Shown here: positions 5,834 through 45,819 of the stretch, in pieces
Layout: every line of letters starts with the position of its first letter
How positions within the stretch are numbered: the stretch's first letter is position 1
Source: an uncultured Candidatus Saccharibacteria bacterium
Lineage (GTDB): Bacteria; Patescibacteriota; Minisyncoccia; Phycocordibacterales; UBA9973
Assembly: GCA_964591445.1 (NCBI GenBank)
Contig: CAZQAW010000001.1
Span: 14,625 to 78,624 of the forward strand
Direction: 5' to 3'
DNA length: 64,000 nt
Notes under the pieces: generated by a model
Told to the model about the DNA's origin: nothing
The model's input: the letters and a program-made list of their open reading frames with translations, nothing else
Database searches by the model: none
Program-made: the position numbers and the translations under genes

Positions 5834-6760
5834 ATGAAGATACTGTGCATCCTATTGCTTCTCACTCTGGGTGCAGAAGTATTCTCACAAGAGAGAAAGT
5901 ACATTTACAAAACATCTACAATCACTATTCCTTTAGGGCTTTATACTCGGCTTGAAATTTCTGCAATTACTAAAAAACCATCCATTTATTCTCCCCGATC
6001 TGACAGCAAAGAAACAACTCGAAAAAGTACTCTGACATACACTAAGACGCAAAAGCCAATTTTGTTAGACAGCCTCTCTCTATCTTCGGATTCCTTGTCT
6101 CTTGATTCTATCAATGTGCAAGATTCATTAGGACGTTATCCTAACAAACAAGAAGCAGACTCTGCACTTTTTCATTGGAAATCTGACTTACAGAAAATTG
6201 CTGAATGTATCGAAAGCAAAGTAGATTCTTTGTTAATTGCCGAAACTACGAAAGTTGATATACGAAGAACTATAGAGACAGTCGTACGCCAAGAATCACG
6301 AAATATTCTGTACGTTGGCAAAGACAGCGCGGTATGGCATTTCATGCAACGTTTTGAGAAATCTATCAAGGAAACATACTCAATAACTACTACAACCTCT
6401 CGGACTATTCAAATCATAACGCATGAGTGTGTCGAAATAGAAACAAAGAATAATCAAGACAGCACCCAAGAGATAATGCTCGCTCTGAAAGATAGTACTA
6501 TAGAAGATCCTATTCCAGAGAAAGAGAAGAAAGGTATATTTCGTAAAAAGGGTGTCAAAATTGCATTAGTAGTTGTCGCAGCACCAGTTGCTATCCCGGT
6601 GTTTATAGTGGGGTACCCTATCTATCTTCTTATCGATAAACTTTCAAACCGTTCCAGCAACAGATCATTCACCATTCAGTTCAAAATCAAGAAAGTTGGT
6701 AAAGTTAAAAGAAGTAAGGGCAAAAAACGTTATAAAAACCAGTGTTTTGACAAATTTTAA
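5834..6760 (+). CDS. Hypothetical secreted/membrane-anchored protein.
   Basis: N-terminal signal peptide MKILCILLLLTLGAEVFSQ, a serine-rich repeat (DSLSLSSDSLSLDS), a C-terminal TM (IALVVVAAPVAIPVFIVGYPIYLLI) and a basic tail. AT-rich. Confidence 0.5.
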   Translation: MKILCILLLLTLGAEVFSQERKYIYKTSTITIPLGLYTRLEISAITKKPSIYSPRSDSKETTRKSTLTYTKTQKPILLDSLSLSSDSLSLDSINVQDSLGRYPNKQEADSALFHWKSDLQKIAECIESKVDSLLIAETTKVDIRRTIETVVRQESRNILYVGKDSAVWHFMQRFEKSIKETYSITTTTSRTIQIITHECVEIETKNNQDSTQEIMLALKDSTIEDPIPEKEKKGIFRKKGVKIALVVVAAPVAIPVFIVGYPIYLLIDKLSNRSSNRSFTIQFKIKKVGKVKRSKGKKRYKNQCFDKF

Positions 6761-8513: not shown

Positions 8514-11429
8514 TTACACCGCTACAATGTTAACAAGTCTTCCCTTCACGTAGACTATTTTGACGATCTTTTTGCCGTCAGTCCATTTTTTGATCATTTC
8601 GTTTTCCTGCGCTTTCGATTTGATGATTTCTTCGTCCATGTCTACCGGTATAATGAGTTCCGCACGAACTTTGCCATTTACCTGAAGCGCAATAGTGACT
8701 TCGTCGTCAACGATTTTCGATTCGTCATACTGTGGCCACGTTGAGAGATGGATAGAAGCCGTCTCGCCAAGCTCGTGCCACAGTTCTTCGGCAATGTGCG
8801 GCGCGAATGGAGAAAGGAGTTTGCAGAAAGTAAGGAGATCTTGTTTTGCAATTCCTTCTTCTTTTTCCCATAGGTTGAGTAGAATCATCATTTGGGAAAT
8901 GCAGGTGTTGAATTTATACTCGGCAATATCTTCTGATATTTTTTTGATTGCTTTGTGAAGCGCTTTGCTTGCAGTATCGCTTGTTGTTTTTCCTGCGTCA
9001 TTATTTTTTTCTACAAGCCTCCACACTCGCTCCAAGAATTTTCGCACGCCCACAACTCCATTCGGGTCCCAAGGATAATTTCCTCCGTCTCCATACGGAC
9101 CCATGAATGCCAAATACAATCGCACAGTGTCAGCACCCAAAAGCTGAACCACTTGGTCGGGGTCAATGACGTTACCTTTGGATTTACTCATTTTGTTTCC
9201 GTCCGGGCCAAGAATAAGTCCGCGATTGCGGCGCGCAAGATACGGCTCGGTTTCTTCCACCATGCCAGCATCGTGCATCGCCTTCACCCAAAAGCGTGAA
9301 TAGAGCAAGTGCATCGTTGTGTGTTCTGCTCCACCGAAATACATATTGATCGGCATCCAAGCTTTGCGAGATGCTTTGCTTGCAAATTCATTTTCATTTT
9401 TCGGGTCAAGATATCGATAGAAATACCACGAAGAGTCGACAAATGTGTCCATCGTTTCAACTTCCGGTGTCCAGCCTTCCCCAAAAATATCTGTCACTCG
9501 CTTTTTCAATTCAGCACTGCGAGCAAGCGGCGCAGTTCCGTCTGGAGTATGGTCAACATCTGTTGGCAAAAGCCACGGCAAATGTTCGTTCGGAACTGCA
9601 TGCGCTTTGCCCGCTGGGTCGTACACAATAGGAATCGGCACACCCCAATAACGCTGACGAGAAATTCCCCAGTCGCGCAAACGATAAGTGTTCACCATTT
9701 TTCCACCGACGTGTTCTGTGATTTTCTTTTTCGCTTCTTCAGACGGAAGGCCAGTGAATGTAGCGGAGTCTTCCAGTATTCCACAATCAGTTAAGCACGT
9801 AGTTTTAAATTTTTTCGCATCGCTTGTGGTGTCGTAGCCGAGTTCGATCGCACGAGCTACTGATTCATCCAAAAATCTAATGTAATGTTTCAATCCATCT
9901 TCGTCGTTGTGAGTTTCCCAATATGTTTTTATTTCTTCAGCCGTCTTCCAGCCAAGAGTAAATTTTTCGTGCGCTTCAAGTTTAGTTGGTTTTGTCTGGG
10001 CGCTGTTAAGAATGATCAAAAAGCATTCGGCTCGGGCCGAGCGATTTACCTGTTTAAGTGTATTAAAATAATGCGCATAACTTGATTCGATCCATTCGAC
10101 ATATTTGAAATCATACAACCCACTTTCTTCTGCAACTTCACGCAGAACTCCTTTTTCGACAGATTCTCCATCATCAACCCCGCCCGCAAACAAAAGTATT
10201 TTTCCGTTTTCAAATTCACTCACCGCATATTTCTGAGTTGCTGGATCAAAAATAATTCCAGCACCGCCATTTCGAAATTCTTCGTTTTCTCTCTTCTGTC
10301 CAGTTTCTCGAGCAATCACTTTTTTTATCGGCAAATTATATTTCTTCGCAAATTCAAAATCACGTTCATCGTGCGCTGGCACTGCCATTACCGCACCTGT
10401 TCCGTAATTTACTAACACATAATCTGCAACCCATACTGGCACTTCTTCGCCATTTGCAGGATTAATTGCTTTTATACCCTGGAGCTCTACTCCTGTTTTT
10501 TCTTTTGATTGCTGGCGGTCAAGGTCGGACTTCTTTTTCGACAGAGAAATGTATTTTTCAACTTCATTCCAATTTGAAATACTTTCTTTAAGTTTTGACA
10601 CAAGAGTATGCTCAGGAGACAACACAACATACGTAACACCAAACAATGTGTCAGCACGAGTAGTGAAAACCCGAATACTCTCCCTCTCCTGGCTAGGAGA
10701 GGGCTGGGGTGAGGTTGTAATTTTAAATTCAATCTCGCTTCCTTCGCTTCTGCCAATCCAATTCTTCTGCGCTTCTTTGATATGCTCCGGCCAATCCAAA
10801 GTATCCAAGTCGTCGATCAATCTGTCTGCGTATTTTGTAATGCGGAACATCCACTGGTCTTGATCTTTCTGTATCACTTCAGCACCACAGCGTTCGCAGC
10901 AGCCGTTTGTCACTTGCTCGTTTGCAAGCACCGTTTTGTCTTTCGGACACCAGTTCACTTGCGTTGTTGCGCGATACACCAAATCTTTTTTCAAAAATTT
11001 TGCGAACATCCACTGCGTCCATTTGTAGTAAGATGGATCGCACGTCACCACTTCTCGCGACCAATCAAACGAAGTTCCGATCGAGTAAAATTGCTCGCGC
11101 ATTTTATCCATGTGCGAGTATGTCCACACTTTCGGGTCTTGGCCAAGTTTGATAGCCGCGTTTTCAGCCGGAAGTCCAAAGGCGTCGAAGCCCATCGGGT
11201 AGAGTACATTAAAACCTTTCATTCGTTTGTAGCGCGCATACATGTCTGGAATAGCAAAAGCGTACCAGTGCCCGACGTGCAAATTCCCGGAAGGATAAGC
11301 AAATTCAACCAAAGTATAGAAATTCTCTTTGCCGGTAACGCTATCTTCTACACGGTATACGCCCTGTTCCCGCCAAGCATCCTGCCATTTCTTTTCGATA
11401 TCTTTATGGTTATATTCGCGCTTTTTCAT
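8514..11429 (-). CDS. leuS: Leucyl-tRNA synthetase carrying two insertions: a palindromic-element peptide and a Nudix-box domain.
   Basis: HVGH (HIGH motif), the CP1 editing domain TTRADTLFGVTYVV...AHDERDFEFA, VNTYRLRDWGISRQRYWG, and KMSKSKGN. The protein is 971 aa, longer than the ~860 aa typical of bacterial LeuRS. Confidence 0.95.
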   Translation of the reverse strand: MKKREYNHKDIEKKWQDAWREQGVYRVEDSVTGKENFYTLVEFAYPSGNLHVGHWYAFAIPDMYARYKRMKGFNVLYPMGFDAFGLPAENAAIKLGQDPKVWTYSHMDKMREQFYSIGTSFDWSREVVTCDPSYYKWTQWMFAKFLKKDLVYRATTQVNWCPKDKTVLANEQVTNGCCERCGAEVIQKDQDQWMFRITKYADRLIDDLDTLDWPEHIKEAQKNWIGRSEGSEIEFKITTSPQPSPSQERESIRVFTTRADTLFGVTYVVLSPEHTLVSKLKESISNWNEVEKYISLSKKKSDLDRQQSKEKTGVELQGIKAINPANGEEVPVWVADYVLVNYGTGAVMAVPAHDERDFEFAKKYNLPIKKVIARETGQKRENEEFRNGGAGIIFDPATQKYAVSEFENGKILLFAGGVDDGESVEKGVLREVAEESGLYDFKYVEWIESSYAHYFNTLKQVNRSARAECFLIILNSAQTKPTKLEAHEKFTLGWKTAEEIKTYWETHNDEDGLKHYIRFLDESVARAIELGYDTTSDAKKFKTTCLTDCGILEDSATFTGLPSEEAKKKITEHVGGKMVNTYRLRDWGISRQRYWGVPIPIVYDPAGKAHAVPNEHLPWLLPTDVDHTPDGTAPLARSAELKKRVTDIFGEGWTPEVETMDTFVDSSWYFYRYLDPKNENEFASKASRKAWMPINMYFGGAEHTTMHLLYSRFWVKAMHDAGMVEETEPYLARRNRGLILGPDGNKMSKSKGNVIDPDQVVQLLGADTVRLYLAFMGPYGDGGNYPWDPNGVVGVRKFLERVWRLVEKNNDAGKTTSDTASKALHKAIKKISEDIAEYKFNTCISQMMILLNLWEKEEGIAKQDLLTFCKLLSPFAPHIAEELWHELGETASIHLSTWPQYDESKIVDDEVTIALQVNGKVRAELIIPVDMDEEIIKSKAQENEMIKKWTDGKKIVKIVYVKGRLVNIVAV
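10676..10717. repeat. Copy A of the in-frame palindromic element (actct-ccctctcc-tggcta-ggagaggg-ctggggtgaggttg) inside leuS.
   Basis: Identical 36-nt core to the copies at 31229-31264 and 33731-33766. It forms an 8-bp perfect hairpin ccctctcc/ggagaggg. In the leuS frame it reads [13 protein letters not shown]. Confidence 0.85.
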
Positions 11430-12514: not shown

Positions 12515-12570
12515 ATGAACTGCTAATACTTATATAGTATACTAAACGTATAAGTTTACAAATTTGTGAT

Positions 12571-13167
12571 ATGACACCCAAACCGAAACAACCATTCAAA
12601 AAGCGCGAGCTTACAGACATCGAGAAAATGTCGATGGCGCTTACTCGTTGGGTCGGCTCGACAAAGTCGCTCGTTGCGCATACTGTATTTTTCGCTGTCA
12701 TGATACTCCTTGCCATTTCCGGTGTCGGTTTTGACAAAGTGCTTCTCATCCTCACAACGGTCGTTTCGCTTGAAGCAATTTATCTTTCCATTTTTATCCA
12801 AATGTCTGTGAACCGCCAAGCTCGCCGACTGCGTGAAGTGTCGCAAGATATCGAAGAGATTCAAGAAGACGTTGAGGAAATCCAAGAAGATGTCGAAGAA
12901 ATTGCCGAGGATGTGGAAGGCATTGAAAAAGATATCGATGAAATCCAAGAAAATGTGGACGAGATTCAGGAGGACGTGGAAGACATTACCGAAGATGTCG
13001 AGGATATTACCGAAGACGTAGACATGTATGAAAAAGAAGAGAAAGTCCGCGATGAAGCGATGATGAACAACATTCAGAACACGCTCGCGGAACTGATGCG
13101 AGAAATTCAAGAATTGAAAGAAAGCAAAGCAAGCAAAACTGTCGTGAAGAAAAAATTGGAAAAATAA
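12571..13167 (+). CDS. DUF1003-like small membrane protein with an acidic heptad-repeat tail.
   Basis: LTRWVGSTKSLVAHTVFFAVMILL and the following TM match the DUF1003 pattern. The C-terminus is about 8.5 tandem heptads, EDVEEIQ/EDVEDIT. Confidence 0.6.
   Translation: MTPKPKQPFKKRELTDIEKMSMALTRWVGSTKSLVAHTVFFAVMILLAISGVGFDKVLLILTTVVSLEAIYLSIFIQMSVNRQARRLREVSQDIEEIQEDVEEIQEDVEEIAEDVEGIEKDIDEIQENVDEIQEDVEDITEDVEDITEDVDMYEKEEKVRDEAMMNNIQNTLAELMREIQELKESKASKTVVKKKLEK
12850..13029 (+). repeat. Tandem 21-nt coding repeat, about 8.5 units (gatgtcgaagaaattcaagaa-like).
   Basis: Direct tandem repeats visible in the nucleotide sequence, encoding (D/E)(V/I)(E/D)EI(Q/A/T)E heptads. Confidence 0.7.
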
Positions 13168-13225
13168 AAGGCCCACAACAATTTGAATGTGTAGACCGTT
13201 TTATCGCGCTTCATCTTTAAGTTGG

Positions 13226-18071: not shown

Positions 18072-18659
18072 ATGACAAAGCAGGAACAGCTTGCCGAACT
18101 GCATAAAAAATGGCTTGCTGAATGCACTTGTGAATTGCGCCACACTGCGACACAGGGTGTGCCGGGCGATGGAAATGCGAATTCAGATATTGTGTTCATC
18201 GGCGAAGCACCGGGCAAAGATGAAGATATCCAAGGCCGGCCTTTTGTTGGCAGAGCTGGGCAATTCTTGAACGAAATGCTTGCGAGCATCAATATGAAGC
18301 GCGAGGATATTTATATTACAAACATCGTCAAATATCGCCCGCCGAACAATCGCGACCCATTGCCAGATGAAATCGCCGCTTGCAAAGAGTGGTTGCACGA
18401 AGAGCTCGCGCTTATCAAACCAAAGCTCATCATTTTCTTGGGACGGCATTCAATGAATCATTATTTTCCGCTTGAGAAAATTTCGCAGATTCATGGAAAG
18501 CTTATTATCAAAAGTTTTCAGGGCATGGGGCGGCAGCATTTCTTCCCTCTTTATCACCCGGCGGCAGCGCTTTACAATGGCGGCATGCGCGAAACTTTGA
18601 TGGAAGATTTTCTTAAAATACCGAAGGTTCTCCAAAAAATAGAACGTACAGAAAAATAA
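18072..18659 (+). CDS. Uracil-DNA glycosylase, family 4.
   Basis: GEAPG motif (IVFIGEAPGKDED), N-terminal cysteine cluster CTCELRH, and the C-terminal HP...LYN region typical of family-4 UDG. Confidence 0.85.
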   Translation: MTKQEQLAELHKKWLAECTCELRHTATQGVPGDGNANSDIVFIGEAPGKDEDIQGRPFVGRAGQFLNEMLASINMKREDIYITNIVKYRPPNNRDPLPDEIAACKEWLHEELALIKPKLIIFLGRHSMNHYFPLEKISQIHGKLIIKSFQGMGRQHFFPLYHPAAALYNGGMRETLMEDFLKIPKVLQKIERTEK

Positions 18660-18752
18660 AAATACTACTTTAAAAAGCACGACATAAAATCCTGCTGGAT
18701 TTTTGCTCTGCTCGGCTCGACAGCCTGCGCAAGGCTTTTCAAAGTAGTATTT

Positions 18753-19997
18753 TTATTTTTCTTCCAGTATCCCAGACGCGCACGTAATGCAACTTTCGCA
18801 ATTCTTCTCCCCTTCTTTCCATGCGCGCCAGGCTTTACGAAGTGGAAGTATAGACATGAAATAACGAAGATCAATAAGCGTTCGCATCCACCAGCCGACA
18901 AGCCCGGAAAAAGAATGTTTGCCGACGACAATCATCGCCCAGTCGGGGCCAACTGGCATCGCATAGGCAACTTTTTTGGGAACGTACGAAAACTTTTTTG
19001 TAGAATACCGAATACGCGAAGCAATGACTTTTGCGACGAACTTGCCATTGTCGATCGCTGTTTGTGCAAGGCCGGCATACTGTGTCTGCGCGCCGTCACC
19101 GATAACGAAAACATTTTTTTGTCCAACGGCTTCAAGTTCACCTGTCACTTCCACGCGGCCGTTGGGTGCTTTTTTCAACCCTTGCGCGTTCATATAATAG
19201 TGCGAAGCTTTGACGCCCGCAGTCCACACAACGCTGTGTGATGGAATATGCATGTGGTCGGTATAAATGCCGCCCGCATCCGCGCGAAGCATTTTTTCTC
19301 CGGTATGTACATGTACACCCAAGAATTTCAAACGCTCTTCGATTTTTACTGAAACTGTCTCGCTCATCATCGGCACAAGTCTTTCCGCGCCTTCGATAAG
19401 AAGCAAGTTCACATGTTCGCGCGCAACTTCGTGCAGTGTGCAAAGCTTGTCAACATACGAAGAAAGTTCTCCGGCAAGTTCAACACCGGCTGGACCGCCA
19501 CCGACAATCGTCACACGCAAATTGCTTTCCAAATCTTCTTTGCGAGCGAGGCTGTGATCGTGAAATACTTGATGCAGATGATTTTTCAACCGAAGCGCAT
19601 CGTTGATAGACTTGAATGGAAAGGCATGTTCTTCGAGACCGGGAATGCCGAAGTACGCGCTTTCGGACCCGAGCGCAAGCACCAGATAGTCATAATGATA
19701 GCGCGAGCCGCTCACACCGGCGACAACTTTTTGGTCAAAAATAAATGACACCACTTCGTCATGTACGACATACACGTTTGTGTCTTCAAAAATATCGGAA
19801 AGCTGGATGCACACTTCAAGCGGACTTTTGCCGGCAACAGCGCGATAAAGCATAGGATAATATTCAAAATGAGTATTTTTTGAAAGAAGCGTGATGGAAG
19901 TATTTCGAAAATGTTTTTTAGACAAGCGAAGTGCCGCTTCGATACCAGCAAAGCCTCCGCCGACTATGAGTATGCGCGTATGTTCTTTGTGAGACAT
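18753..19997 (-). CDS. ndh: Type II NADH dehydrogenase (NDH-2) / FAD pyridine-nucleotide disulfide oxidoreductase.
   Basis: Two Rossmann motifs: ILIVGGGFAGIEAA (FAD) and VTIVGGGPAGVELAGEL (NADH). 414 aa. Confidence 0.85.
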   Translation of the reverse strand: MSHKEHTRILIVGGGFAGIEAALRLSKKHFRNTSITLLSKNTHFEYYPMLYRAVAGKSPLEVCIQLSDIFEDTNVYVVHDEVVSFIFDQKVVAGVSGSRYHYDYLVLALGSESAYFGIPGLEEHAFPFKSINDALRLKNHLHQVFHDHSLARKEDLESNLRVTIVGGGPAGVELAGELSSYVDKLCTLHEVAREHVNLLLIEGAERLVPMMSETVSVKIEERLKFLGVHVHTGEKMLRADAGGIYTDHMHIPSHSVVWTAGVKASHYYMNAQGLKKAPNGRVEVTGELEAVGQKNVFVIGDGAQTQYAGLAQTAIDNGKFVAKVIASRIRYSTKKFSYVPKKVAYAMPVGPDWAMIVVGKHSFSGLVGWWMRTLIDLRYFMSILPLRKAWRAWKEGEKNCESCITCASGILEEK

Positions 19998-19998
19998 G

Positions 19999-21432
19999 TC
20001 AGTCCACTATCGCAATGTCGTCCGCATTTTCTGGTTCGCCTCGTTTTCTTCGTCGAATGTACAAAGTGATGCCGATCGAAAGCGCGAGCATGATTGCAAG
20101 TGTAACAATACTTATTGTAGCAGAACTTCCGCGTGTTTCATCACTTTGTGTATCCACAGCTTGCGCGGAAAGTGGGATTGCTGGAGTGATTTCAGTTTTT
20201 TGTTCTTCGGGAATTTCAGTTGGTAATGAAAGCGAAGACGAAGATGGAGCGCGCGAGGATACGCGCGCTGCCGAAGACCGCGCATTGTTAAATGTAAAAG
20301 CAATCGTTCCATCTTTGCCCACAAGCACAAGCGGCAGTGTATGATCAGCACCGGCAAACCCTGTTACCGAAGCTGCCAAAAACAAACTTTTGCCTGGCAA
20401 AATAATACTATTATACGCAAACGCAAACTGCTTGCTGCCAAGAGAAAGTGACCAGCCGGAAAGATCGAACTCTTTCGTGTCTGCATTTTGCAAAGTAATA
20501 TTCCCTGCTTCGTCAAACGAAGTTATGGCAAGCTTGTGGTCTTCAACCGTAAGGATCACTCGATCGCCAGCATCAGAAGTCGTACTTGCAATATACGGAT
20601 TCATAAAATAATCGAGCGTGACCACATAGTCGCCAGACTTTTTATACGTGTGCACCACTTTCTCATTTGTCTCTTTCATCACACTTGCTCCGTCGCCAAA
20701 ATTCCAAGCGAATTTGCCGCGGCGTATCACTTCACCAGAAGGCGCAAGCACTTTTGGCTCAAACACGACTTCGATATTCGTAATAGCAACTTGCTTCACA
20801 ATCATTTCCGCTGTCATTTTCTGCACCGTTTGCTCGACAGGTTTTTTGGTTACGGGTGTTGTTGGCGTCGTAGAACTTCCACCGCTTCCACCATTTGCAT
20901 TGTCGCCACCTGCGTCAACGTCAGAAGTTGTCGCATTAGTCGCACCAGGAGTCGGCGCTGCTATCACCCAGTTCTCGCCATTTTTCTGCAAGCTTTTACC
21001 TGCACCCGCACCACTTGGGTCGGCAACATACGTCACTTGGTTTACGATAGTATTTGTCGCATCTTTCATCGCCAAGGTCTCACCCGGATCGTTGTTGAGC
21101 GAAAAACTTGAGTCAAAAAGTATACCTGAAAAATTGGGCCAGTCGGTTTTAAATTTTGAAATCGTATCCGCAATGATTGCAAACCCACCAGCTGGAATAC
21201 TTGCCGAGCCATCGGGCACGAGCGAGTGGTTCGTATTGCCTTCGAAAAATTTATACGTCGACAAATCAACAGCAGCTGAACTGGTATTCAACACTTCTAT
21301 CCATTCTCGGTCGGTGTCGGTCCCGTCCAAGTCGTACATGATTTCATTGATAATGATTTCCGCGCGCGCAACAAATGGAAGCGCGCATATAAAACCAAAC
21401 GCTATGAGTTTCTTCATAGCGTTAGTATACAA
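19999..21432 (-). CDS. Lamin-tail-domain (LTD) surface protein with a C-terminal membrane anchor.
   Basis: Signal peptide, then IINEIMYDLDGTDTDREWIEVLN (the canonical LTD start). Gly/Thr-rich linker and a C-terminal TM (IVTLAIMLALSIGITLYI) followed by RRRKR. Confidence 0.75.
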   Translation of the reverse strand: MYTNAMKKLIAFGFICALPFVARAEIIINEIMYDLDGTDTDREWIEVLNTSSAAVDLSTYKFFEGNTNHSLVPDGSASIPAGGFAIIADTISKFKTDWPNFSGILFDSSFSLNNDPGETLAMKDATNTIVNQVTYVADPSGAGAGKSLQKNGENWVIAAPTPGATNATTSDVDAGGDNANGGSGGSSTTPTTPVTKKPVEQTVQKMTAEMIVKQVAITNIEVVFEPKVLAPSGEVIRRGKFAWNFGDGASVMKETNEKVVHTYKKSGDYVVTLDYFMNPYIASTTSDAGDRVILTVEDHKLAITSFDEAGNITLQNADTKEFDLSGWSLSLGSKQFAFAYNSIILPGKSLFLAASVTGFAGADHTLPLVLVGKDGTIAFTFNNARSSAARVSSRAPSSSSLSLPTEIPEEQKTEITPAIPLSAQAVDTQSDETRGSSATISIVTLAIMLALSIGITLYIRRRKRGEPENADDIAIVD

Positions 21433-21435
21433 AAC

Positions 21436-23670
21436 CTATTCTAAAATTTTCTTCAAGACGTCTTCTGGAACTTCCTTGATTTTTGTCTCATTTTCGGCTT
21501 TATGCACAGATTCTTCTTCGATCTTCTTTTGTTCTTCTTCTTTTGACGGTTCTGTTTGAAGCGGCACTTCAACTTGTACAGGAGAGGGTTCTTCTTTCTT
21601 TTGCTCAGTTTTTGCAGCCATATACGAAGCTGGAGCGATATTTGGTTTGCCCGCCATCGCTTTTGCAATGACATCTTTCAAAAGCGAGATGCTTTCTCTA
21701 CTGCCGGCTTTTTTGGTGGCGACACGCTCTGGCGGATTGCTTTCTCTTCGCAAGTCTTCAAGTGGCATTTCTTTTTTTTGTTCTTGTATTTCCGGACGAG
21801 GAGTGACGGATTTCACATCTTCCAATTTCGGCTTATGAAAAACTTCTTTTTCTTTTTTTACCAAAATAACTTCCGGCTGTTTTTCAGGAACTTTTTTCGG
21901 AGTTGGTTCAAAATCTGCTGCCGCGGGCAACACATCGGCAAGTGCATCATTTAATGCGGACTTGATTGTATCCGGATCAATCGAAGCTCGCACCGGCCGT
22001 TCGACAGGTTGTGGAATTGGGCGAGGCGCGGGTTGAGGCTGAGCTGGTGTTTGTTGCGTTGGTTGTGGTACTTGCGGTTGCGGCATCGGTTTTGAAGGCA
22101 CTGGCGCAATTTCTCCAGATTTTATCTTTGCCAAATCTTCTTTGCAGTAGACCGGCCGGCCTGGAGTTGGCTCGAACGGCAACCAAATTTCTTTGCCACA
22201 CACGGCACAGTTTGCCTTAAACTTCCCTTCTTTATCTTTTTCGCTTATTTCATCTGGTGGTGGAACTTCTCCGGGCGCAAGCACAACACCGCCTTTGGCA
22301 CTGCTCCATGCATTGATCGTTTCTTCAATCTCTGTTCGCGGCATTGTGTAGAGTTCGCGAGAACGATCGACGATTTGCTGAATACTTACCAAGTTCCCTG
22401 GGAATTTGAGTGGTGGAATAGTGCCGGCAGAAAATGGTCGTGATGTGAATCCATCTACCATGAGTTTCAAATATACATTGTAGTTTGGAAGCGCGACTAA
22501 ATCTTCTGGAGTAATTTCTGGTGCGAATTCTTGTTCCAGGAATTCCGCGTCTTGTGCGCCAACGCGGAAAACGATCATCGTTCCAACGTTGCCGAACACA
22601 GCGTCGCGAACCGCAGTTCCGTTCGCAGTGACAAGCTGGTTGGTATATTGGTGCGCAATGATCAAGTTCAAACGGTATTTTCGCGCTTCAGAAAGAATCG
22701 AAGCAAAAGATTCTGTCACGAAGTTTTGAAATTCGTCCACGTACAAATAAAAGTCTTTTCGTTCTTCTTCGGGCACGCGCACGCGCTCCATCGCCGCAAG
22801 CTGGATTTTGGTAATAAGCATTCCTCCCAAAAGCGCAGAGTTGTCTTCACCGATGCGTCCTTTTGAAACGTTCACCAAGAAAATTTTCCCTGTGTTCATC
22901 ACATCAAACACGTTGATCGTGGACTTTGATTGCCCAACCACGTTTCGCACGATCGCACTTGAAAGAAATTGCCCGACTTTGTTTTGGATCGGGGCGATTG
23001 CTTCGTTTCGAAATTGGTCTCGCCACTGTTCGTATTCGTGCACCCAAAAAGCTTTCACCACAGGGTCTTTCAAATTCCCGATGATTGTTTTTCGATAATC
23101 TTTATCTACAAGTAGTCGCGGAATGCCAAGCAATGTTGTGCCCGGCGTATCAAGCAAAGCAAGAATCGCATTGTTCAAAATGTATTCCATTCGAGCGCTC
23201 CACGCATTGGCCCAAATCTTTGTGAAAATTCCCATCAAACCTGACGCAACCAGATGCTTGTATTGTGGATCTTCGAGTTCGAGCACGTTGAACCCAACAT
23301 GAAAATCCGTATCGGCGGGGTTGAAATAAATGACGTCGTTCAAGCGATGCTCGGGAATTGAAGCGAGAATTCCTTCCACCAGTTCTCCGTGCGGGTCAAC
23401 AACACACACACCTTCGCCATTGTTGATGTTCTGAATGATCATATTGGAAAGCAGAACAGACTTTCCTGTTCCAGATTTTCCAAGCACGTACATATGTTGG
23501 CGGCGGTCGCGGCGCTTAATACCAAAAAGCTGATTGCTTCCGCGGAAATTCGTGCGGCCGAAATATGTAATGTCTCTATTGTGTGGTAGTTCGTTTAAGT
23601 CCATTGCGTTATTCTTGCTATAAGTATAACGTGATTTACCGCGCTTTGCTAGATGTGATCCGTCGTTCAA
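21436..23670 (-). CDS. VirD4/TraG-like type IV secretion coupling-protein family ATPase with a C-terminal zinc-ribbon and a Pro/Gln-rich tail.
   Basis: Walker A at YVLGKSGTGKSVLL and Walker B at LYVDEFQNF. The TraG/TraD-like core gives ...IAHQYTNQL...IVFRVG. There is a CAVCGKE...VYCKED Cys4 module, then PQPQVPQPTQQTPAQPQPAPRP and a K/E-rich acidic tail. Confidence 0.75.
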   Translation of the reverse strand: MNDGSHLAKRGKSRYTYSKNNAMDLNELPHNRDITYFGRTNFRGSNQLFGIKRRDRRQHMYVLGKSGTGKSVLLSNMIIQNINNGEGVCVVDPHGELVEGILASIPEHRLNDVIYFNPADTDFHVGFNVLELEDPQYKHLVASGLMGIFTKIWANAWSARMEYILNNAILALLDTPGTTLLGIPRLLVDKDYRKTIIGNLKDPVVKAFWVHEYEQWRDQFRNEAIAPIQNKVGQFLSSAIVRNVVGQSKSTINVFDVMNTGKIFLVNVSKGRIGEDNSALLGGMLITKIQLAAMERVRVPEEERKDFYLYVDEFQNFVTESFASILSEARKYRLNLIIAHQYTNQLVTANGTAVRDAVFGNVGTMIVFRVGAQDAEFLEQEFAPEITPEDLVALPNYNVYLKLMVDGFTSRPFSAGTIPPLKFPGNLVSIQQIVDRSRELYTMPRTEIEETINAWSSAKGGVVLAPGEVPPPDEISEKDKEGKFKANCAVCGKEIWLPFEPTPGRPVYCKEDLAKIKSGEIAPVPSKPMPQPQVPQPTQQTPAQPQPAPRPIPQPVERPVRASIDPDTIKSALNDALADVLPAAADFEPTPKKVPEKQPEVILVKKEKEVFHKPKLEDVKSVTPRPEIQEQKKEMPLEDLRRESNPPERVATKKAGSRESISLLKDVIAKAMAGKPNIAPASYMAAKTEQKKEEPSPVQVEVPLQTEPSKEEEQKKIEEESVHKAENETKIKEVPEDVLKKILE

Positions 23671-24217
23671 CTATCTGGCTTACAATGATGCCACATGCGA
23701 GCACCATGGCATAGAGCGCGAGCGCTTCCGGATACGTAAAAGGAATTTTGGAAAGCGAGCCCAAGATGAATGCGAGCACCCACGACGACACCGACACCGC
23801 ACCAAAGGCAAATGACCAGCGGCGGATGCGAATGTATTTGTTGCGACCTTTTGTATCGGTAAAACTGATGTGCGGCAATGCCGGATGCACGACGAAATGG
23901 AAGAAAAGGCCGTTCAAAATAAGCACACCAACTATGGACATTTTTGTGAGGAATTTGACAGAGACCGCGTACACTTCCGGATTTGAAAAGAAAAGCGCAG
24001 CGCCCGAAAGTACTATAAAGAGAAGCGCGATCCACACGATTCGCGACAGAGTCGACAACACACCGTTTTCCGTAATGTTCAACTTTTTGTCTTTGATAAA
24101 AATATTGAAAAGCAAATCTGAAACAAGCGCAGCGCCCATGCCAATAACAACGGAAAAAACGTGAAGTATCACGAACAAAGTTTTATATTCGGCACAAAAT
24201 GAAATAAATGATTCCAT
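23636..24217 (-). CDS. Hypothetical 5-TM membrane protein.
   Basis: 193 aa, hydrophobic throughout. Its start overlaps the upstream ATPase stop by about 35 nt. Confidence 0.5.
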   Translation of the reverse strand: MESFISFCAEYKTLFVILHVFSVVIGMGAALVSDLLFNIFIKDKKLNITENGVLSTLSRIVWIALLFIVLSGAALFFSNPEVYAVSVKFLTKMSIVGVLILNGLFFHFVVHPALPHISFTDTKGRNKYIRIRRWSFAFGAVSVSSWVLAFILGSLSKIPFTYPEALALYAMVLACGIIVSQIVERRITSSKAR

Positions 24218-24222
24218 AAAAT

Positions 24223-24732
24223 TTATTCCCCATTATAAGCCTTTTCTAAATCTGCGATGATAATTTTCTTCATCGGCATCATGGCTTGCATTGCGCGGGC
24301 GGATTTTACTGCGTCAGAGCCATTCATCCACTCTCCCATATTCGGAACTATCTGCCACGAAAAGCCGTATTTGTCTTTGCACCAGCCGCATTGGCTTTCT
24401 GCGCCTTCTTTTGTAATCGCATTCCAGAAATAATCGATCTCTTCTTGGTCTTTGCAATTTACAAGAAACGAAACGGATTCATTTGGCTTGAAAAGCGGGC
24501 CGCCATCGAGTGCCATAAATGTTTGGCCGTTCAACATAAAAACTGCAGTCAGAACTTGGCCATCAAACCCAGCCATCGGTCCTTCGGTGATTCCGCTTGG
24601 GTAACGCTTGATGGAAACGATTTTTGATTCGCTGGTTGAGTCAGCAGGATTGCCATTAAAAAGAGAAACATAAAAGTTGACAGCTTCTTCGCAATTGCGA
24701 TCAAACCAAAGAAACGGGGTTATTTTTTGCAT
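24223..24732 (-). CDS. VOC/glyoxalase-superfamily protein (PhnB/3-demethylubiquinone methyltransferase-like fold).
   Basis: ITPFLWFD...AEEAVNFYVSLF...GQVLTAVFMLNGQTFMALDG...GFSWQIVP is the PhnB-like family pattern. Confidence 0.7.
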   Translation of the reverse strand: MQKITPFLWFDRNCEEAVNFYVSLFNGNPADSTSESKIVSIKRYPSGITEGPMAGFDGQVLTAVFMLNGQTFMALDGGPLFKPNESVSFLVNCKDQEEIDYFWNAITKEGAESQCGWCKDKYGFSWQIVPNMGEWMNGSDAVKSARAMQAMMPMKKIIIADLEKAYNGE

Positions 24733-24836
24733 AAGTAAATTGTAGCAAAAAAGCATAAATCAGCATTATTGACTTACATTTATAAATATAGTATTATTTT
24801 TAAAAATACATTCACACTCAAAATTTAATAATCATC

Positions 24837-25493
24837 ATGGCAGAAACCACAACACCCACTACTTTCATAAAGGACATTACAGAGGAATTTATTAAAGTCC
24901 ACCGTACACCACTTCCTCTCGCTAACATATTTATTTACACAATTAAGCTGGTGAAATGCTCTGGCATGGGAGCTTCAGCATACATTGTAAAACCAATAGA
25001 TACACTCCTAAAGAACATATCTTCATACGAACATACAAATCAGCGTTTCATTGCGATGCGCTATAACCTTGAGGCTGCACTGCAGAGCCTCATATTGATG
25101 GACAACAAAATTCTTGTAGACATCCTTAATTATTTTGAATCTATAAAGAAAAAAAGTAATCCTTTAGAATTGTTTATGAAAAATCAATTGGGCATTTCTT
25201 CGGGCGCAGATAAAAAGATGGATCGAGCGCTGATACTTTTTATGCTTGATAAGGTGTCTAGGCACCAAGAATATTTTTTATTAGAAAAAAATTCTGAAAC
25301 ATCGCATATGCTACCCTACATTCTAAGAAACTACTACGCGGAACAAAAACAAGGGTACCAAGTAGAAATAAATCACGCTCAATGCTATGGGTTCGTTTAT
25401 CAGGCGAAAAACAACAGGAGCGCGACAAAAGGAACAGTAAGTATAGAACCATCACACATTAAAGTGATGGTAGACTTCAGCCCCACAAGCTGA
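24837..25493 (+). CDS. Hypothetical protein (ORFan) in a 23-30% GC islet.
   Basis: 218 aa. No motif. Compositionally distinct from its neighbours. Confidence 0.45.
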   Translation: MAETTTPTTFIKDITEEFIKVHRTPLPLANIFIYTIKLVKCSGMGASAYIVKPIDTLLKNISSYEHTNQRFIAMRYNLEAALQSLILMDNKILVDILNYFESIKKKSNPLELFMKNQLGISSGADKKMDRALILFMLDKVSRHQEYFLLEKNSETSHMLPYILRNYYAEQKQGYQVEINHAQCYGFVYQAKNNRSATKGTVSIEPSHIKVMVDFSPTS

Positions 25494-25665: not shown

Positions 25666-26166
25666 CTACCCTCTTTCGTACATATGATAGGCATACGATG
25701 TTGGAATAAATTTGAAAAACATTCCTTCATCTTTTGACACAACATCCAATGCCTTCAATTTTTCTTTAGTTGTAACTTGATTCATTGAAGAAACATTTGT
25801 GTCATTCGTCCTTTTTTCAAGGTCTGCCCTTAGTTCATCTTTGAACTTTCTAATATCTTCAGATTTACTAAGTAAATACAAGGTGCCAAAAGCTCGCATT
25901 TGGCAAACGTTGATTTGGTTATAAGCCCCCAAAAAGTAAGTTTTACAAGGAAAGACAGCAATCTCTGTTTTCTTGTTACGCTCATCTTTTGTGAGATGAA
26001 AAAATATTTCCATAGTTTCCTCATCAGAAATCTTAAAAAAACAGCGAGGTCTCAAATCTCTATTTTCGAATGGATTTGCCCAAAGGTCTTTATTGTTGGA
26101 AACAAAGACTGTTCCTATCAAGGGGAAAAATTTAATTCCTTCCTTTTTCTTTATTCTTTTGTACAT
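25666..26166 (-). CDS. Hypothetical protein (ORFan) in the same low-GC islet.
   Basis: 166 aa, convergent with the 24837 gene. No motif. Confidence 0.45.
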   Translation of the reverse strand: MYKRIKKKEGIKFFPLIGTVFVSNNKDLWANPFENRDLRPRCFFKISDEETMEIFFHLTKDERNKKTEIAVFPCKTYFLGAYNQINVCQMRAFGTLYLLSKSEDIRKFKDELRADLEKRTNDTNVSSMNQVTTKEKLKALDVVSKDEGMFFKFIPTSYAYHMYERG

Positions 26167-42976: not shown

Positions 42977-43771
42977 TTATTCCCCAGCAGTTTCGCCAGC
43001 TGGTGGAGTTGTTGGCTCTTCTTCTTTTGGAGTTTCTGATGTTGGTTCGGTCGGCTCTTCGACTTTTTGTTTCTTTGTCGACTTTGTTGTCGTTGGTTTT
43101 ACTTCAACTTTCGGCTTTTCTTCTTCTGGTAAAAGCGTCTTCAATTCTGGGAGATTTTTTTCTATGTCTTCGACGCTTTGGAAGCCGTTGAATGTTTTGC
43201 CATTCATAACAAGCGCTGGAAGCGCGTCGCCAACTTTGTAGATAGACTTGAGGGTTTGTACCGCAGAGATGTCGATATTGTAGTCAAACGAATATACACG
43301 AAGGCCCGGGTATTTCTCGCGGAGTGCGGTAAGCACGTAGCTTTGCTTGTCGCAGTCTTCGCAGTCGTTCGCATTGCCATAGAAGTACAGCACAAACACA
43401 GACGCTTCTTTACAGCGTTCGGTGATGCGCTTCATAAGCAAATAGTCTTTGATTTCAAGAAGCGAATAGTAGCGCTTGAGAGCTGCCACGTCTTCACTGT
43501 CGCCAATGTTTTCTTCGCTCGAGTCGATCTTCTCTCCCAACGAATTGAGTTCTTGAGAAAGATAGGATTCGGTAACGTTCGAACAAGAAGATTCTTCAAG
43601 CAAAGAAAATTGTGTTTCAGAAGAAAGGATGTCGATGGCGATCTTGTCTTGAATAGACTTCAAGTTGTCGATCTTTTTATTATTAAAATAGTTGCTCAAA
43701 TACAGCGCAGTCAAAAAAAGTCCGCAGGTAATAAAGAAAACGAAGATATATTTTGTCCAATTGTTTTTCAT
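42977..43771 (-). CDS. Membrane-anchored thioredoxin-fold protein (hypothetical).
   Basis: N-terminal TM. The C-terminal region has a CEDCDKQ CxxC-type motif and VMNGKTFNGFQ (thioredoxin/glutaredoxin-like), then a K/E/P/T-rich tail. Confidence 0.5.
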   Translation of the reverse strand: MKNNWTKYIFVFFITCGLFLTALYLSNYFNNKKIDNLKSIQDKIAIDILSSETQFSLLEESSCSNVTESYLSQELNSLGEKIDSSEENIGDSEDVAALKRYYSLLEIKDYLLMKRITERCKEASVFVLYFYGNANDCEDCDKQSYVLTALREKYPGLRVYSFDYNIDISAVQTLKSIYKVGDALPALVMNGKTFNGFQSVEDIEKNLPELKTLLPEEEKPKVEVKPTTTKSTKKQKVEEPTEPTSETPKEEEPTTPPAGETAGE

Positions 43772-45022: not shown

Positions 45023-45117
45023 ATTTTACAAGGCTTTTCTAGCGTTTCTGAAGTGCTCTCAGTATACCATTTTTAGACCTTTTTTTCAAGAATGTGTTCC
45101 TGTGGTATACTTTGAAC

Positions 45118-45819
45118 ATGAAAACAGAAAAAATAAGCACTGGAACGGGAATCATTGTGGCGGGTATTTTTATTGCCGCGGCGATATTCTTTTCTCGAGG
45201 AGGAGCTGCTCCACAAGTCGCAAGCACTACGACCAAAATCACTGTGCCGACATATACCGTTAAAGCTGAAGCAAGCGGAGACCACTATATCGGCAAAGCT
45301 GACGCGCCGATTGTGATTACAGAATATTCTGACCTCGAATGTCCATTTTGTAAACAAGCACACCCAACTGTGCACAAAGTTCTCGAAGCTTACAAAGATG
45401 AAGTCGGTGTCGAGTACGTCCACTTCCCTCTTTCTATCCACCCGAAAGCACAAAAAGAAGCTGAAGCCGCGGAATGCGTATACAAACTTGGCGGCAACGT
45501 TGCGTTCTGGAGTTTTATCGACACGATCTTCGCAATCACTCCGGCAAACAATGGTTTGGACGCAGCACTCCTTCCTGAAGTTGCGAAAAAAGTCGGCGTG
45601 AATGAAAAGCAATTTATGACATGTCTTGATTCCGGAGAAATGGCAGACAAAGTAGCAATCGACCAAGCTCGCGGAACAGCAAATGGCGTGAAAGGTACAC
45701 CGCAGTTTGTCATCACGTCTCGAGCAACAGGCAAATCCATCACTATCCCGGGTGCAATTCCATTTGAGCAATTTAAACTAAAAATCGAAGAAGTACTGAG
45801 TGGAGGTGGGCAAGTATAA
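45118..45819 (+). CDS. DsbA-family thiol:disulfide oxidoreductase, membrane-anchored.
   Basis: N-terminal TM, then YSDLECPFCKQAHP (CPFC active site) and the DsbA-like helical insertion. Confidence 0.8.
   Translation: MKTEKISTGTGIIVAGIFIAAAIFFSRGGAAPQVASTTTKITVPTYTVKAEASGDHYIGKADAPIVITEYSDLECPFCKQAHPTVHKVLEAYKDEVGVEYVHFPLSIHPKAQKEAEAAECVYKLGGNVAFWSFIDTIFAITPANNGLDAALLPEVAKKVGVNEKQFMTCLDSGEMADKVAIDQARGTANGVKGTPQFVITSRATGKSITIPGAIPFEQFKLKIEEVLSGGGQV

Follow-up and report, generated by a model that had tools for sequence, protein, structure and literature searches.

Gene order and features of the locus

Three open reading frames, all on the minus strand and read in one direction, span positions 19999-24217 of the window, the 64-kb stretch of DNA analyzed here, which comes from a Patescibacteria bacterium with a tiny genome. 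In order of transcription they encode a membrane protein with five transmembrane segments (5-TM; 24217-23636), an ATPase that we call ATPz, and a surface protein with a lamin-tail domain (LTD). The trio is part of a close-packed, co-directional string of five genes (3-dmu-9_3-mt-family [PF06983], 5-TM, ATPz, LTD, NDH-2-like) separated by gaps of 5, 31, 18 and 1 nt; shuffled sequence contains promoter- and terminator-like sites at least as often. The three genes and their domain calls agree with an earlier note on this DNA, but that note had the ATPase stop overlapping the membrane-protein start, an order that is reversed because the minus strand runs from membrane protein to ATPase to LTD gene. 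The overlap itself also disappears: the longest ATPz frame begins at TTG 23670 and gives the 744 aa reported earlier, but near-identical homologues are 722 aa long with a start matching ATG 23604, and this start leaves a 31-nt gap to the membrane-protein gene.

Features of the locus, with position in the window, strand and supporting evidence
Feature	Position	Strand	Evidence
5-TM membrane protein, 193 aa, upstream neighbor of ATPz	23636..24217	-	five hydrophobic segments
ATPz, soluble T4CP-like ATPase, 722 aa from ATG at 23604	21436..23604	-	Pfam/NCBIfam T4CP profiles, homologue lengths, no TM, hhalign
ATPz Walker A GKSGTGKS, aa 42-49 of the 722-aa protein	23458..23481	-	41 homologues compared
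ATPz Walker B region YVDEFQ, aa 288-293	22726..22743	-	columns Y288 to Q293 invariant (41 homologues)
ATPz zinc-ribbon-like module CAVC-x17-CKED, aa 466-490	22135..22209	-	zf_Tbcl_2, TIGR04272, 84-locus comparison
ATPz low-complexity P/E/K/Q-rich tail, aa 499-722 (~225 aa)	21439..22110	-	composition
Conserved peptide IKEVPEDVLKKILE, end of ATPz tail	21439-21480	-	
LTD-PKD surface protein, 472 aa, most likely start ATG 21417	19999..21417	-	Pfam, hydropathy, identical to public protein P0391
LTD	~21025-21369	-	Pfam
PKD	~20614-20715	-	Pfam
C-terminal TM of LTD protein	~20053-20130	-	hydropathy
Cytoplasmic C-terminal peptide ADDIAIVD-COOH of LTD protein	20002..20025	-	motif counts, 92 family members

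Hydropathy analysis detected no TM segment in ATPz, and its profile matches comprise TrwB_AAD_bind (5.6e-14), T4SS-DNA_transf, TraG-D_C, DUF87 and zf_Tbcl_2/TIGR04272 (CxxC-x17-CxxC). The Walker A motif recognized in the earlier note is confirmed by the 41 homologues, in which G42, K43, S44, G45, G47, K48 and S49 never vary and T46 hardly ever does. The PQ-rich tail was likewise correctly called; it ends in a peptide, KEVPEDVL(R/K)K(I/V)LE, common to loci with an LTD partner and loci in a dnaK operon. A Cys4 zinc ribbon, by contrast, had been overcalled: the module here has three cysteines, with Asp at the fourth ligand position (CxxC-x17-CxxD) as in the closest relative, and most homologues carry CxxC-x17-CxxC.

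The LTD protein has Pfam matches to LTD (E 6e-22) and PKD (3.8e-7), a signal-like hydrophobic N-terminus and one C-terminal TM followed by a cytoplasmic tail, in keeping with a secreted, C-terminally anchored protein as previously described. Its domains run in the order LTD, PKD, a further weak LTD, the TM anchor and an acidic-hydrophobic cytoplasmic end. DNA binding by such domains, which had been invoked earlier, is not established; LTD is an Ig-like surface domain. The membrane protein does have about five hydrophobic segments, and its similarity to DUF2214/CopD falls under the curated cut-offs.

ATPz is a VirD4/TrwB-type coupling-protein homologue

ATPz is a homologue of VirD4/TrwB-type coupling proteins (T4CPs), not of FtsK or HerA, and the coupling-protein-like character assigned to it earlier stands on Pfam/NCBIfam, hhalign, PDB and Foldseek comparisons alike. 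Alignment of the family profile by hhalign with a plasmid-borne T4CP from the actinomycete Embleya, which lies in a T4SS-like cluster of PrgI, VirB4-like, relaxase-like and NlpC-P60 genes, gave a probability of 100% (E 5e-45, 35% identity, 378 columns). PDB sequence and profile searches retrieved TrwB as the sole superfamily member, and the best Foldseek matches were TrwB, DotL and Cag-beta.

Two other assignments were considered and rejected. The E. coli FtsK motor reached an hhalign probability of only 20% over 58 columns, the sole aligned segment being the Walker B region YVDEFQ, and Foldseek placed FtsK and HerA at E >= 0.1; ATPz thus does not cluster with either; such clustering is what the earlier note had named as refuting its own reading. 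VirB4 profiles matched around the P-loop only, and the VirB4-like ATPase adjoining the Embleya T4CP scored 76% (E 2e-5), favoring T4CP over VirB4.

Genomic contexts of ATPz and its LTD partner

The ATPz family is large in Patescibacteria: it comprises >8000 clusters at 90% identity (E<=1e-5) and has at least 591 matches in species-representative genomes, and its core is 65-80% identical across Paceibacteria. Over the same 29 genomes (29 species), mean pairwise identity was 88.8% for the ATPz core versus 84.3% for DnaK, with ATPz the more conserved protein in 330 of 406 genome pairs. A shorter paralogous ATPase, ATPs, forms its sister clade, is about as conserved as DnaK, and lies within 8 kb of ATPz in 51/84 loci; a third FtsK/HerA-superfamily ATPase was found within that distance in none of the 84. 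Relatives at ~50% identity carry an N-terminally fused, membrane-anchored domain (Ndom) with a fold like the VirB4 N-terminal domain. Such TM-Ndom-ATPase fusions account for 59 of the best 150 50%-cluster representatives (tandem ATPases for 4-5), and a single profile, phrog_5156, spans Ndom and motor. In 12 loci Ndom is a gene of its own that immediately precedes ATPz or ATPs; searches of the LTD and dnaK groups detected no such gene within 8 kb. A Cys-rich zinc-ribbon protein, F1, occurs in multiple copies (112 across 45 loci) and is invariably found near the ATPases. In one large clade both ATPases sit inside the grpE-dnaK-dnaJ operon, with the recurring order GrpE-F1-PaaX_M-like-DnaK-ATPz-(F1)-ATPs-DnaJ; DnaK is present in 31 loci.

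None of these more widespread partners, ATPs, Ndom and F1 among them, is encoded in the window, where tblastn/HMM searches found neither the paralogue nor the partner families. Apart from the ATPase, no T4SS-like gene was detected in the 64-kb window when 37 further ORFs, among them the largest, were scanned with Pfam, in agreement with the earlier reading.

The neighborhood was expected to be conserved as a whole, which holds for one pair of genes and not for the third. ATPase and LTD genes are adjacent in 16/84 loci (gaps 3-49 nt), all in one Paceibacteria lineage; reverse look-ups from LTD homologues at 32-35% identity found a T4CP-like ATPase immediately upstream in 3/3 cases, and across this small family (110 clusters) the same was true of all 19 contexts examined. 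The 5-TM gene adjoins the ATPase in 2/84 loci and is found no farther than 8 kb away in 5/84; its product is probably a bystander outside the functional unit, and not the module member it had been taken for. A motif in the LTD family, (A/G)(D/E)D(F/I)(E/T)I(V/I/L)(E/D), falls in the last 14 residues of 55/92 members and in 0.33% of other 14-residue windows. This conserved cytoplasmic tail suggests docking to a cytoplasmic partner.

Possible roles of ATPz and comparison with known systems

The model we tentatively favor, which falls just short of being probable, is that ATPz is a T4CP-derived ATPase serving a chromosomal T4SS and paired with the LTD surface protein. ATPz is one of two such paralogous ATPases (with ATPs) that are under housekeeping-level constraint and recur together in related Paceibacteria loci. 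The ancestral form may have been one polypeptide of TM helices, VirB4-N-terminal-domain-like Ndom and T4CP motor; in Paceibacteria the motor is separate and soluble, and it has acquired the zinc ribbon, the extended disordered tail and, at its C-terminus, a conserved peptide that probably serves in docking. From the parallel with TrwB/VirD4 we infer a hexameric NTPase at the cytoplasmic membrane face that could act as a motor or as the receptor for a substrate. Its likeliest client is the relaxase-less T4SS carried on Patescibacteria chromosomes, with genes that would lie away from this locus. In the lineage of the window, ATPz is presumably co-transcribed with the membrane-anchored LTD-PKD protein and probably docks to its conserved acidic-hydrophobic cytoplasmic C-terminus.

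Conservation beyond that of DnaK is atypical of coupling proteins and fits a core cellular role better, which counts against the T4SS-client model; so do the lack of T4SS genes in the 64-kb window, the lack of a third FtsK/HerA-superfamily ATPase within 8 kb in the 84 loci, and the placement of both ATPases in the grpE-dnaK-dnaJ operon of one large clade. That a coupling protein can be dispensed with is a weaker objection, as VirD4 is dispensable for pilus biogenesis in Agrobacterium. Passages of a Patescibacteria T4SS survey report that a T4CP homologue of Southlakia epibionticum (not necessarily an ATPz orthologue) is dispensable and the T4SS genes essential (PMC12102498), an observation that also weighs against the model. 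In the model's favor, the same passages place VirB4, nested in the monoderm MPF-FATA class, in 2417/3035 Patescibacteria genomes, and 5713 T4CP homologues in 2918/3035 (~2 per genome), only 148 of them near virB4 (PMC12102498).

That low count, together with the exaptation raised by the survey's authors, also feeds a rather unlikely alternative: ATPz, ATPs, the Ndom anchor, a small membrane protein (f27) and F1 form an exapted, T4SS-independent housekeeping machine, an ATP-driven system specific to Patescibacteria that could handle or translocate proteins with DnaK/DnaJ/GrpE, with the LTD protein as a lineage-specific membrane tether or client. The DnaK-level or higher conservation of both ATPases, the recurring dnaK-operon order, the constant proximity of F1 and the undetected Ndom gene in the LTD and dnaK groups all fit. 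However, the closest non-CPR relative lies in a T4SS-like cluster, operon neighbors in tiny genomes are often unrelated in function, and genuine systems often have T4CP genes far from virB4 according to the survey passages; by our own arithmetic on those data, finding VirB4 in 80% of genomes and one or more T4CPs in 96% is what ~80% completeness would give with one virB4 and two T4CP genes per genome (PMC12102498). The ATPase-LTD adjacency could also be inherited synteny with no functional coupling, given that only a single lineage, made up of closely related ATPz sequences, has the pair and that small genomes pack unrelated genes co-directionally, as with the NDH-2-like and PF06983 genes of this string. 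We regard this as improbable: flanks vary both upstream (5-TM, F1, cytidylyltransferase-like, DUF4015, others) and downstream (NDH-2, UDG, F1, methyltransferase, GT4), yet the pair is never split, even at 32-35% LTD identity, and the conserved LTD tail points to a partner in the cytoplasm.

None of the findings points to DNA as the substrate, and we do not read the locus as a self-contained DNA-translocation module. T4CPs such as TrwB and TraD act as DNA-dependent ATPases during conjugation, the trio is co-directional and closely spaced, and the N-terminal LTD bears a weak likeness to its counterpart in ExeM, an extracellular nuclease (26 bits, cut-off 1300); even so, the minimal DNA uptake or transfer module of LTD protein, ATPase and 5-TM protein proposed earlier is very unlikely given the rarity of the 5-TM neighbor, an ATPase devoid of a TM domain whose more widespread partners are different proteins, and a search that identified no relaxase, ComEC-like or other channel gene, or DNA-binding partner in the window or the related loci examined. 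The supporting premise that solitary coupling ATPases had been proposed for DNA uptake or transfer is not borne out by the survey passages, which suggest possible exaptation and do not propose DNA uptake (PMC12102498). Least credible of all is an anti-phage defense ATPase of HerA or MADS type: T4CP profiles outscore, the neighbors match 0 PADLOC models, and vertical inheritance, housekeeping contexts and extreme conservation are the opposite of defense islands.

Compared with VirD4/TrwB/TraD proteins, ATPz shares the FtsK/HerA-superfamily P-loop motor with Walker A and B, has an all-alpha insert of ~125 residues at the place of the T4CP all-alpha domain, and finds its best structural and PDB sequence matches among them. 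The C-terminus of F-plasmid TraD is likewise extended and closes with a short conserved peptide. ATPz differs in having no N-terminal TM domain and no nearby relaxase or T4SS genes, in its zinc-ribbon module and ~225-aa disordered tail, and in being a chromosomal, vertically inherited member of a paralogue pair. The ~810-aa monoderm T4CPs that carry a long N-terminal domain, as on the Embleya sp. NBC_00896 plasmid (WP_331738717.1), have the motor aligned above and an N-terminal region that matches the Ndom profile collinearly; this fused architecture (also phrog_5156) is common to many Patescibacteria relatives at ~50% identity, whereas in the group of the window the motor is split from Ndom and the gene lacks the PrgI-like, VirB4-like, relaxase-like and NlpC/P60 neighbors. 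The orphan VirD4-type homologues of Quinonero-Coronel et al. 2025 (PMC12102498) are probably the same gene set as the ATPz family; the term-matched passages, Methods and VirB4-distribution section of that paper describe no two paralogue families, split VirB4-NTD-like anchor, or zinc ribbon and tail, and no LTD partner, Cys-rich F1 neighbors or dnaK-operon context. Unlike VirB4 (TrwK/TraC), ATPz is without any N-terminal domain; with FtsK/SpoIIIE and HerA translocases it shares the superfamily and its RecA-like P-loop core. The LTD protein, finally, resembles bacterial extracellular proteins such as ExeM in its secreted N-terminal lamin-tail (Ig-like) domain, but in place of a nuclease domain it carries the LTD-PKD-weak LTD-TM arrangement that ends in the cytoplasm.

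A T4CP-derived motor that has lost its membrane anchor

ATPz, the coupling-protein (T4CP)-like ATPase of the window, matches Pfam TrwB_AAD_bind at 52 bits (cut-off 20.5; 5.6e-14) as well as T4SS-DNA_transf and TraG-D_C, both above cut-off, and is also assigned DUF87 and the treble-clef zinc finger zf_Tbcl_2. NCBIfam agrees, with an additional match to TIGR04272 (CxxC-x17-CxxC); its TraD/VirD4-type models all score far below their equivalog cut-offs, which means that no named TraD or VirD4 is orthologous to ATPz. Across 41 homologues, Walker A (GKSGTGKS) and Walker B (DEFQ) do not vary. With a nucleotide-binding domain of the FtsK/HerA superfamily, intact Walker motifs and its best profile similarity to T4CPs, the protein is rightly described in an earlier note as a coupling-protein-like ATPase.

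This placement rests on hhalign, PDB and fold comparisons. In hhalign, the family profile aligned to an 812-aa T4CP from a plasmid of the actinomycete Embleya with a probability of 100% (E 5e-45, 35% identity, 378 columns), versus 76% for the VirB4-like ATPase encoded beside it and 20%, over 58 columns, for the E. coli FtsK motor; at the level of sequence profiles, T4CP is thus resolved from VirB4-like and FtsK for ATPz. The Embleya gene sits in a cluster of PrgI-like, XF1762, VirB4-like, T4CP, replication-relaxation and NlpC/P60 genes. PDB sequence searches returned TrwB as the only match, and Foldseek with a moderate AF2 model (pLDDT 66.8) placed TrwB, DotL and Cag-beta at the top, followed by VirB4, with FtsK and HerA at E >= 0.1. 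On these results ATPz does not cluster with FtsK or HerA, the outcome that the earlier note had set against its own interpretation. Pfam FtsK_SpoIIIE had no match on ATPz, which also has no transmembrane segment and does not qualify as a member of FtsK/SpoIIIE (an alpha/beta motor with an N-terminal membrane domain and a gamma domain); nor does it qualify as HerA, which joins a HAS-barrel to a RecA-like core and has NurA, Sir2 or another effector as partner. FtsK is reportedly mentioned in two TM7x transcriptome studies; the idea that ATPz substitutes for FtsK, suggested by its housekeeping-level conservation, was dropped given negligible similarity to the FtsK profile.

The 722-aa ATPz has no hydrophobic segment and thus no N-terminal anchor of the T4CP type. 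It begins ~40 residues before Walker A, and the VirB4 layout, with a VirB4-type N-terminal domain followed by an ATPase domain in one protein, is absent; a VirB4-NTD-like fold is present only in the separate or fused Ndom, the membrane-anchored domain of relatives. The zinc ribbon, previously read as Cys4, is CAVC-x17-CKED: three ligand positions are cysteines and Asp takes the fourth, whereas in most homologues all four are cysteines. The C-terminus is a conserved peptide, KEVPEDVL(R/K)K(I/V)LE.

Paralogue, partners and constraint in related loci

In 84 non-redundant loci, we called ORFs, clustered them and built HMMs. A shorter paralogue, ATPs (~440-520 aa, without the zinc ribbon), was found no more than 8 kb away in 51 loci, often as a direct neighbour; no third ATPase of the superfamily was found within 8 kb in any of the 84. 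ATPz and ATPs form sister clades in a tree with Sulfitobacter and Embleya proteins as outgroups. The Sulfitobacter protein, the closest motor relative outside the CPR (38.5% identity, 395 aa), is likewise anchor-less; its orphan gene is surrounded by genes for recombinases and transposases, and the plasmid that carries it is typed as non-mobilizable.

Relatives of ATPz obtain an anchor from a fused or separately encoded protein with transmembrane (TM) helices and Ndom. The separate form, two TM helices and a ~400-aa domain, precedes ATPs or ATPz in 12 loci, usually in the order SecD, SecF, a sigma70_r4/HARE-HTH protein, Ndom, a small membrane protein, ATPs and ATPz; EF-P is encoded on the other strand. 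TM, Ndom and ATPase are fused in 59 of the best 150 50%-cluster representatives, and 4-5 of the 150 are tandem ATPases, which is Rosetta-stone evidence that the TM, Ndom and ATPase parts act together. The first 400 residues of the Embleya T4CP show a weak, collinear match to Ndom, and phrog_5156 spans Ndom and motor in one profile. Neither Ndom nor the small membrane protein (f27) matched a curated family or sequence in Pfam, NCBIfam or PDB; a precomputed tag on Ndom homologues, PF26449, was the only family label seen. This is probably DUF8128, and the literature searched mentions neither name. The sigma-70 region 4/HARE-HTH protein (RNA polymerase delta-like in its second domain) is kept directly upstream of Ndom in 12 loci. 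Three proteins of 1190-1230 aa (P0206, P0216 and P0229) carry two T4CP-like ATPase cores in tandem on one polypeptide, behind an N-terminal region of 135-410 aa that has no match to the Ndom profile, a layout that recalls the multi-ATPase architecture of EssC/EccC.

A further partner, F1, is a cytoplasmic, Cys-rich protein 550-600 aa long that carries zinc ribbons at both termini and the motif KVPPPTFCPxCR; it occurs in 112 copies, usually in tandem beside the ATPases, and had no match in Pfam, NCBIfam, PHROG or PDB. DnaK is present in 31 loci. In a large Nomurabacteria-like clade the ATPases are embedded in a chaperone operon (L007, L018, L025, L038 and others), in the order GrpE, F1, PaaX_M-like (opposite strand), DnaK, ATPz, (F1), ATPs, DnaJ.

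The family is widespread and strongly constrained. More than 8000 90%-identity clusters match at E <= 1e-5; every one with a named source is from Patescibacteria and bears the label 'type IV secretion system DNA-binding domain-containing' or 'CxxC-x17-CxxC domain-containing' protein; 23,493 50%-identity representatives match at E <= 1e-3, with at least 591 confirmed matches in species-representative genomes. Core identity to the window's ATPase is 64-80% across 80 retrieved loci, among them Nomura-, Kaiser-, Lipton-, Jorgensen-, Wolfe- and Colwellbacteria records. In 29 species where a single locus holds both genes, the ATPz core averages 88.8% pairwise identity and DnaK 84.3%, with ATPz the higher in 330 of 406 pairs; in the same 29 loci ATPs averages 85.7% and DnaJ 78.2%. 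Constraint above the level of DnaK is unusual for coupling proteins. We conclude that ATPz is a motor derived from a T4CP: the covalent membrane anchor has been lost, a paralogue serves as partner, and constraint is very strong.

The LTD protein and the three-gene neighbourhood

The three genes are co-directional and belong to a longer, tightly spaced string of five that also holds a 3-dmu-9_3-mt-family (PF06983) gene and an NDH-2-like gene. The 744-aa length given before for the ATPase is that of the longest ORF, from a TTG; near-identical public homologues are 722 aa, from an ATG at 23604. With that start a gap of 31 nt remains, and the ATPase and membrane genes therefore do not overlap. Promoter- and terminator-like sites in a scan of 18600-25000 numbered as expected from shuffled sequence, and the scan was uninformative.

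Coordinates of features in the window and in related loci (L-numbers)
Feature	Position	Strand	Details
Three-gene group	19999-24217	minus	transcription order: membrane protein, T4CP-like ATPase, LTD protein
Membrane protein	24217-23636	minus	193 aa, five hydrophobic segments
LTD protein, ATG start	21417	minus	472-aa product, identical to P0391 (public homologue)
Conserved acidic-hydrophobic cytoplasmic C-terminal peptide	20002-20025	minus	LTD-family comparison (P0391-P0500)
Leucyl-tRNA synthetase	8514-11429	minus	971 aa
Protein with HEVGH motif	59742-61937	minus	731 aa
ORFs without Pfam family	5834-6760, 12556-13176, 24837-25493, 25666-26166, 42977-43771, 45073-45771, 46466-47344, 58449-59177		eight, 166-308 aa
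Sulfitobacter motor relative	L088, 5986-7173		plasmid NZ_CP081110.1
Sigma-70 region 4/HARE-HTH protein	L061:3163-4182	plus	339 aa
F1 copies	L007:192-1889, L018:10052-11797	plus	110 further copies, 45 loci in all

The lamin tail domain (PF00932) of the surface protein is confirmed at 78.5 bits (gathering cut-off 34.3; 6e-22) in two stretches, and PKD is also assigned. Of the 84 loci, 16 have an LTD gene directly downstream of ATPz, separated from it by 3-49 nt; every one of them comes from the lineage nearest the window, a grade or clade beside the dnaK-operon clade, and the genes flanking the pair vary on both sides. In the reverse look-up, three LTD homologues at 32-35% identity all had a T4CP-like ATPase immediately upstream (gaps 17-47 nt), among otherwise different neighbours. 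The ATPz-LTD pair is also carried by the near-complete, 840-kb contig CBFHKH010000001.1. The LTD family is small (110 clusters), and ectodomain identity within it falls to ~30%. Nevertheless, 55 of 92 full-length members end in (A/G)(D/E)D(F/I)(E/T)I(V/I/L)(E/D)-COOH, positioned in the cytoplasm after a TM helix and a basic stretch; the pattern occurs in 0.33% of other 14-residue windows. A tail conserved despite a divergent ectodomain suggests a cytoplasmic binding partner, for which the co-transcribed ATPase would be the obvious candidate. In a minority of members the TM helix is missing and the protein terminates in a basic segment rich in Phe (...FFKNLFSK). In the window's lineage, then, ATPz is firmly linked, at the gene level, to an LTD-PKD protein that is anchored at the surface and whose cytoplasmic end is conserved. 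A general rule joining the ATPase to a surface protein was rejected, because the genes downstream of ATPz in non-LTD clades (the unannotated f43/f37 and f63, and EF-P) encode no TM or signal-like segment.

The five-TM gene adjoins the ATPase in no more than 2 of the 84 loci, and in 5 it is found within 8 kb; its matches to CopD and DUF2214 fall below gathering scores (19.3 bits vs 34.1 and 16.8 vs 32.1). Of the three-gene neighbourhood, the ATPz-LTD pair is thus conserved, within one lineage, and the five-TM gene is not, and we regard its product as a bystander.

The window is housekeeping chromosome of a Paceibacteria-type CPR bacterium, with genes for LepA, MurJ, LeuRS, UvrA, UvrB, TGT, MreBC, RpoBC, sigma-70, DnaG, S2, EF-Ts and DUF5671 and three tRNA genes, beyond which Rfam found nothing. 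No T4SS, pilus or competence gene was found in these 64 kb, in keeping with what had been noted for T4SS components; the ATPase has no relaxase or VirB4 gene beside it there, and searches of the window for ATPs, Ndom, f27 and F1 were all negative. In the window's leucyl-tRNA synthetase the editing domain is directly followed by a match to a NUDIX domain (residues 407-501, E 1.6e-7), an unusual insertion. The HEVGH protein has a signal-like N-terminus and a zincin-type motif outside any Pfam family, and is possibly a novel extracellular metallopeptidase. The eight ORFs without a Pfam family are typical CPR dark matter.

Readings of ATPase function

By analogy with TrwB and VirD4, ATPz would form a hexamer at the inner membrane face and energise or gate macromolecule transfer. 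The proposal that the LTD protein, ATPase and five-TM protein form a minimal DNA-translocation module is unsupported as stated and very improbable: a conserved membrane component, a channel and a DNA-related partner are all absent. We tentatively prefer the reading, in our view quite possible, that ATPz serves the T4SS of Patescibacteria, which is chromosomal, has no relaxase and would be encoded elsewhere in the genome. The relatives nearest to ATPz outside the CPR are T4CPs from a T4SS-like cluster, and T4CP genes are often far from virB4. In the accessible excerpts of a survey of Patescibacteria T4SS genes (Quinonero-Coronel et al. 2025, PMC12102498), 5713 VirD4-type homologues occur in 2918 of 3035 genomes, only 148 of them near virB4; the excerpts leave the role of these homologues open and suggest exaptation. 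The prevalences they give (VirB4 80%, at least one T4CP 96%) are those to be expected, by our own arithmetic, at ~80% genome completeness if each genome had one virB4 gene and two for T4CPs, which also favours a T4SS-serving role, and the ATPz/ATPs pair fits the roughly two T4CP homologues per genome reported there.

The main rival, that ATPz has a core function independent of any T4SS, seems to us unlikely, albeit a serious contender: it would account for conservation above that of DnaK, the embedding in dnaK operons and the association with F1, and the survey excerpts describe a T4CP homologue as dispensable in Southlakia epibionticum, which may not be the ATPz orthologue. Rather improbable, in our estimate, is a bolder form in which ATPz, ATPs, the VirB4-NTD-like anchor and F1 would constitute an undescribed, near-universal Patescibacteria machine, derived from a conjugative coupling protein and T4SS-independent; in the window's lineage the LTD protein would replace the missing anchor, and its conserved C-terminal peptide would join the hexameric motor in the cytoplasm to an adhesin-like domain outside the cell. 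A defence system was rejected: PADLOC matches (mad8, HerA) cover the ATPase alone, and context and conservation speak against it.

Orphan T4CP homologues in Patescibacteria are already published. The literature searched did not contain the two paralogue families, the split VirB4-NTD-like anchor, the zinc ribbon, tail and terminal peptide of ATPz, conservation above DnaK, the F1 and dnaK-operon associations, or an LTD partner with a conserved tail. Patescibacteria account for a large part of the diversity of bacteria, with most conserved genes lacking a known function, and this ATPase family, very widespread in that major radiation, is genuinely unexplained: it is present in almost every genome, on the survey's excerpted figures, and evolves more slowly than Hsp70. 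The split VirB4-NTD-like anchor and T4CP motor, the paralogue pair, the conserved terminal peptides and the lineage-specific surface-protein partner are testable handles. A coupling protein is defined as one that brings substrates (relaxosome or effectors) to a T4SS and is needed for their transfer. They could help to tell whether these episymbionts employ a coupling protein in their T4SS, which is essential and has no relaxase, or whether a conjugation ATPase has been recruited to a new core function.
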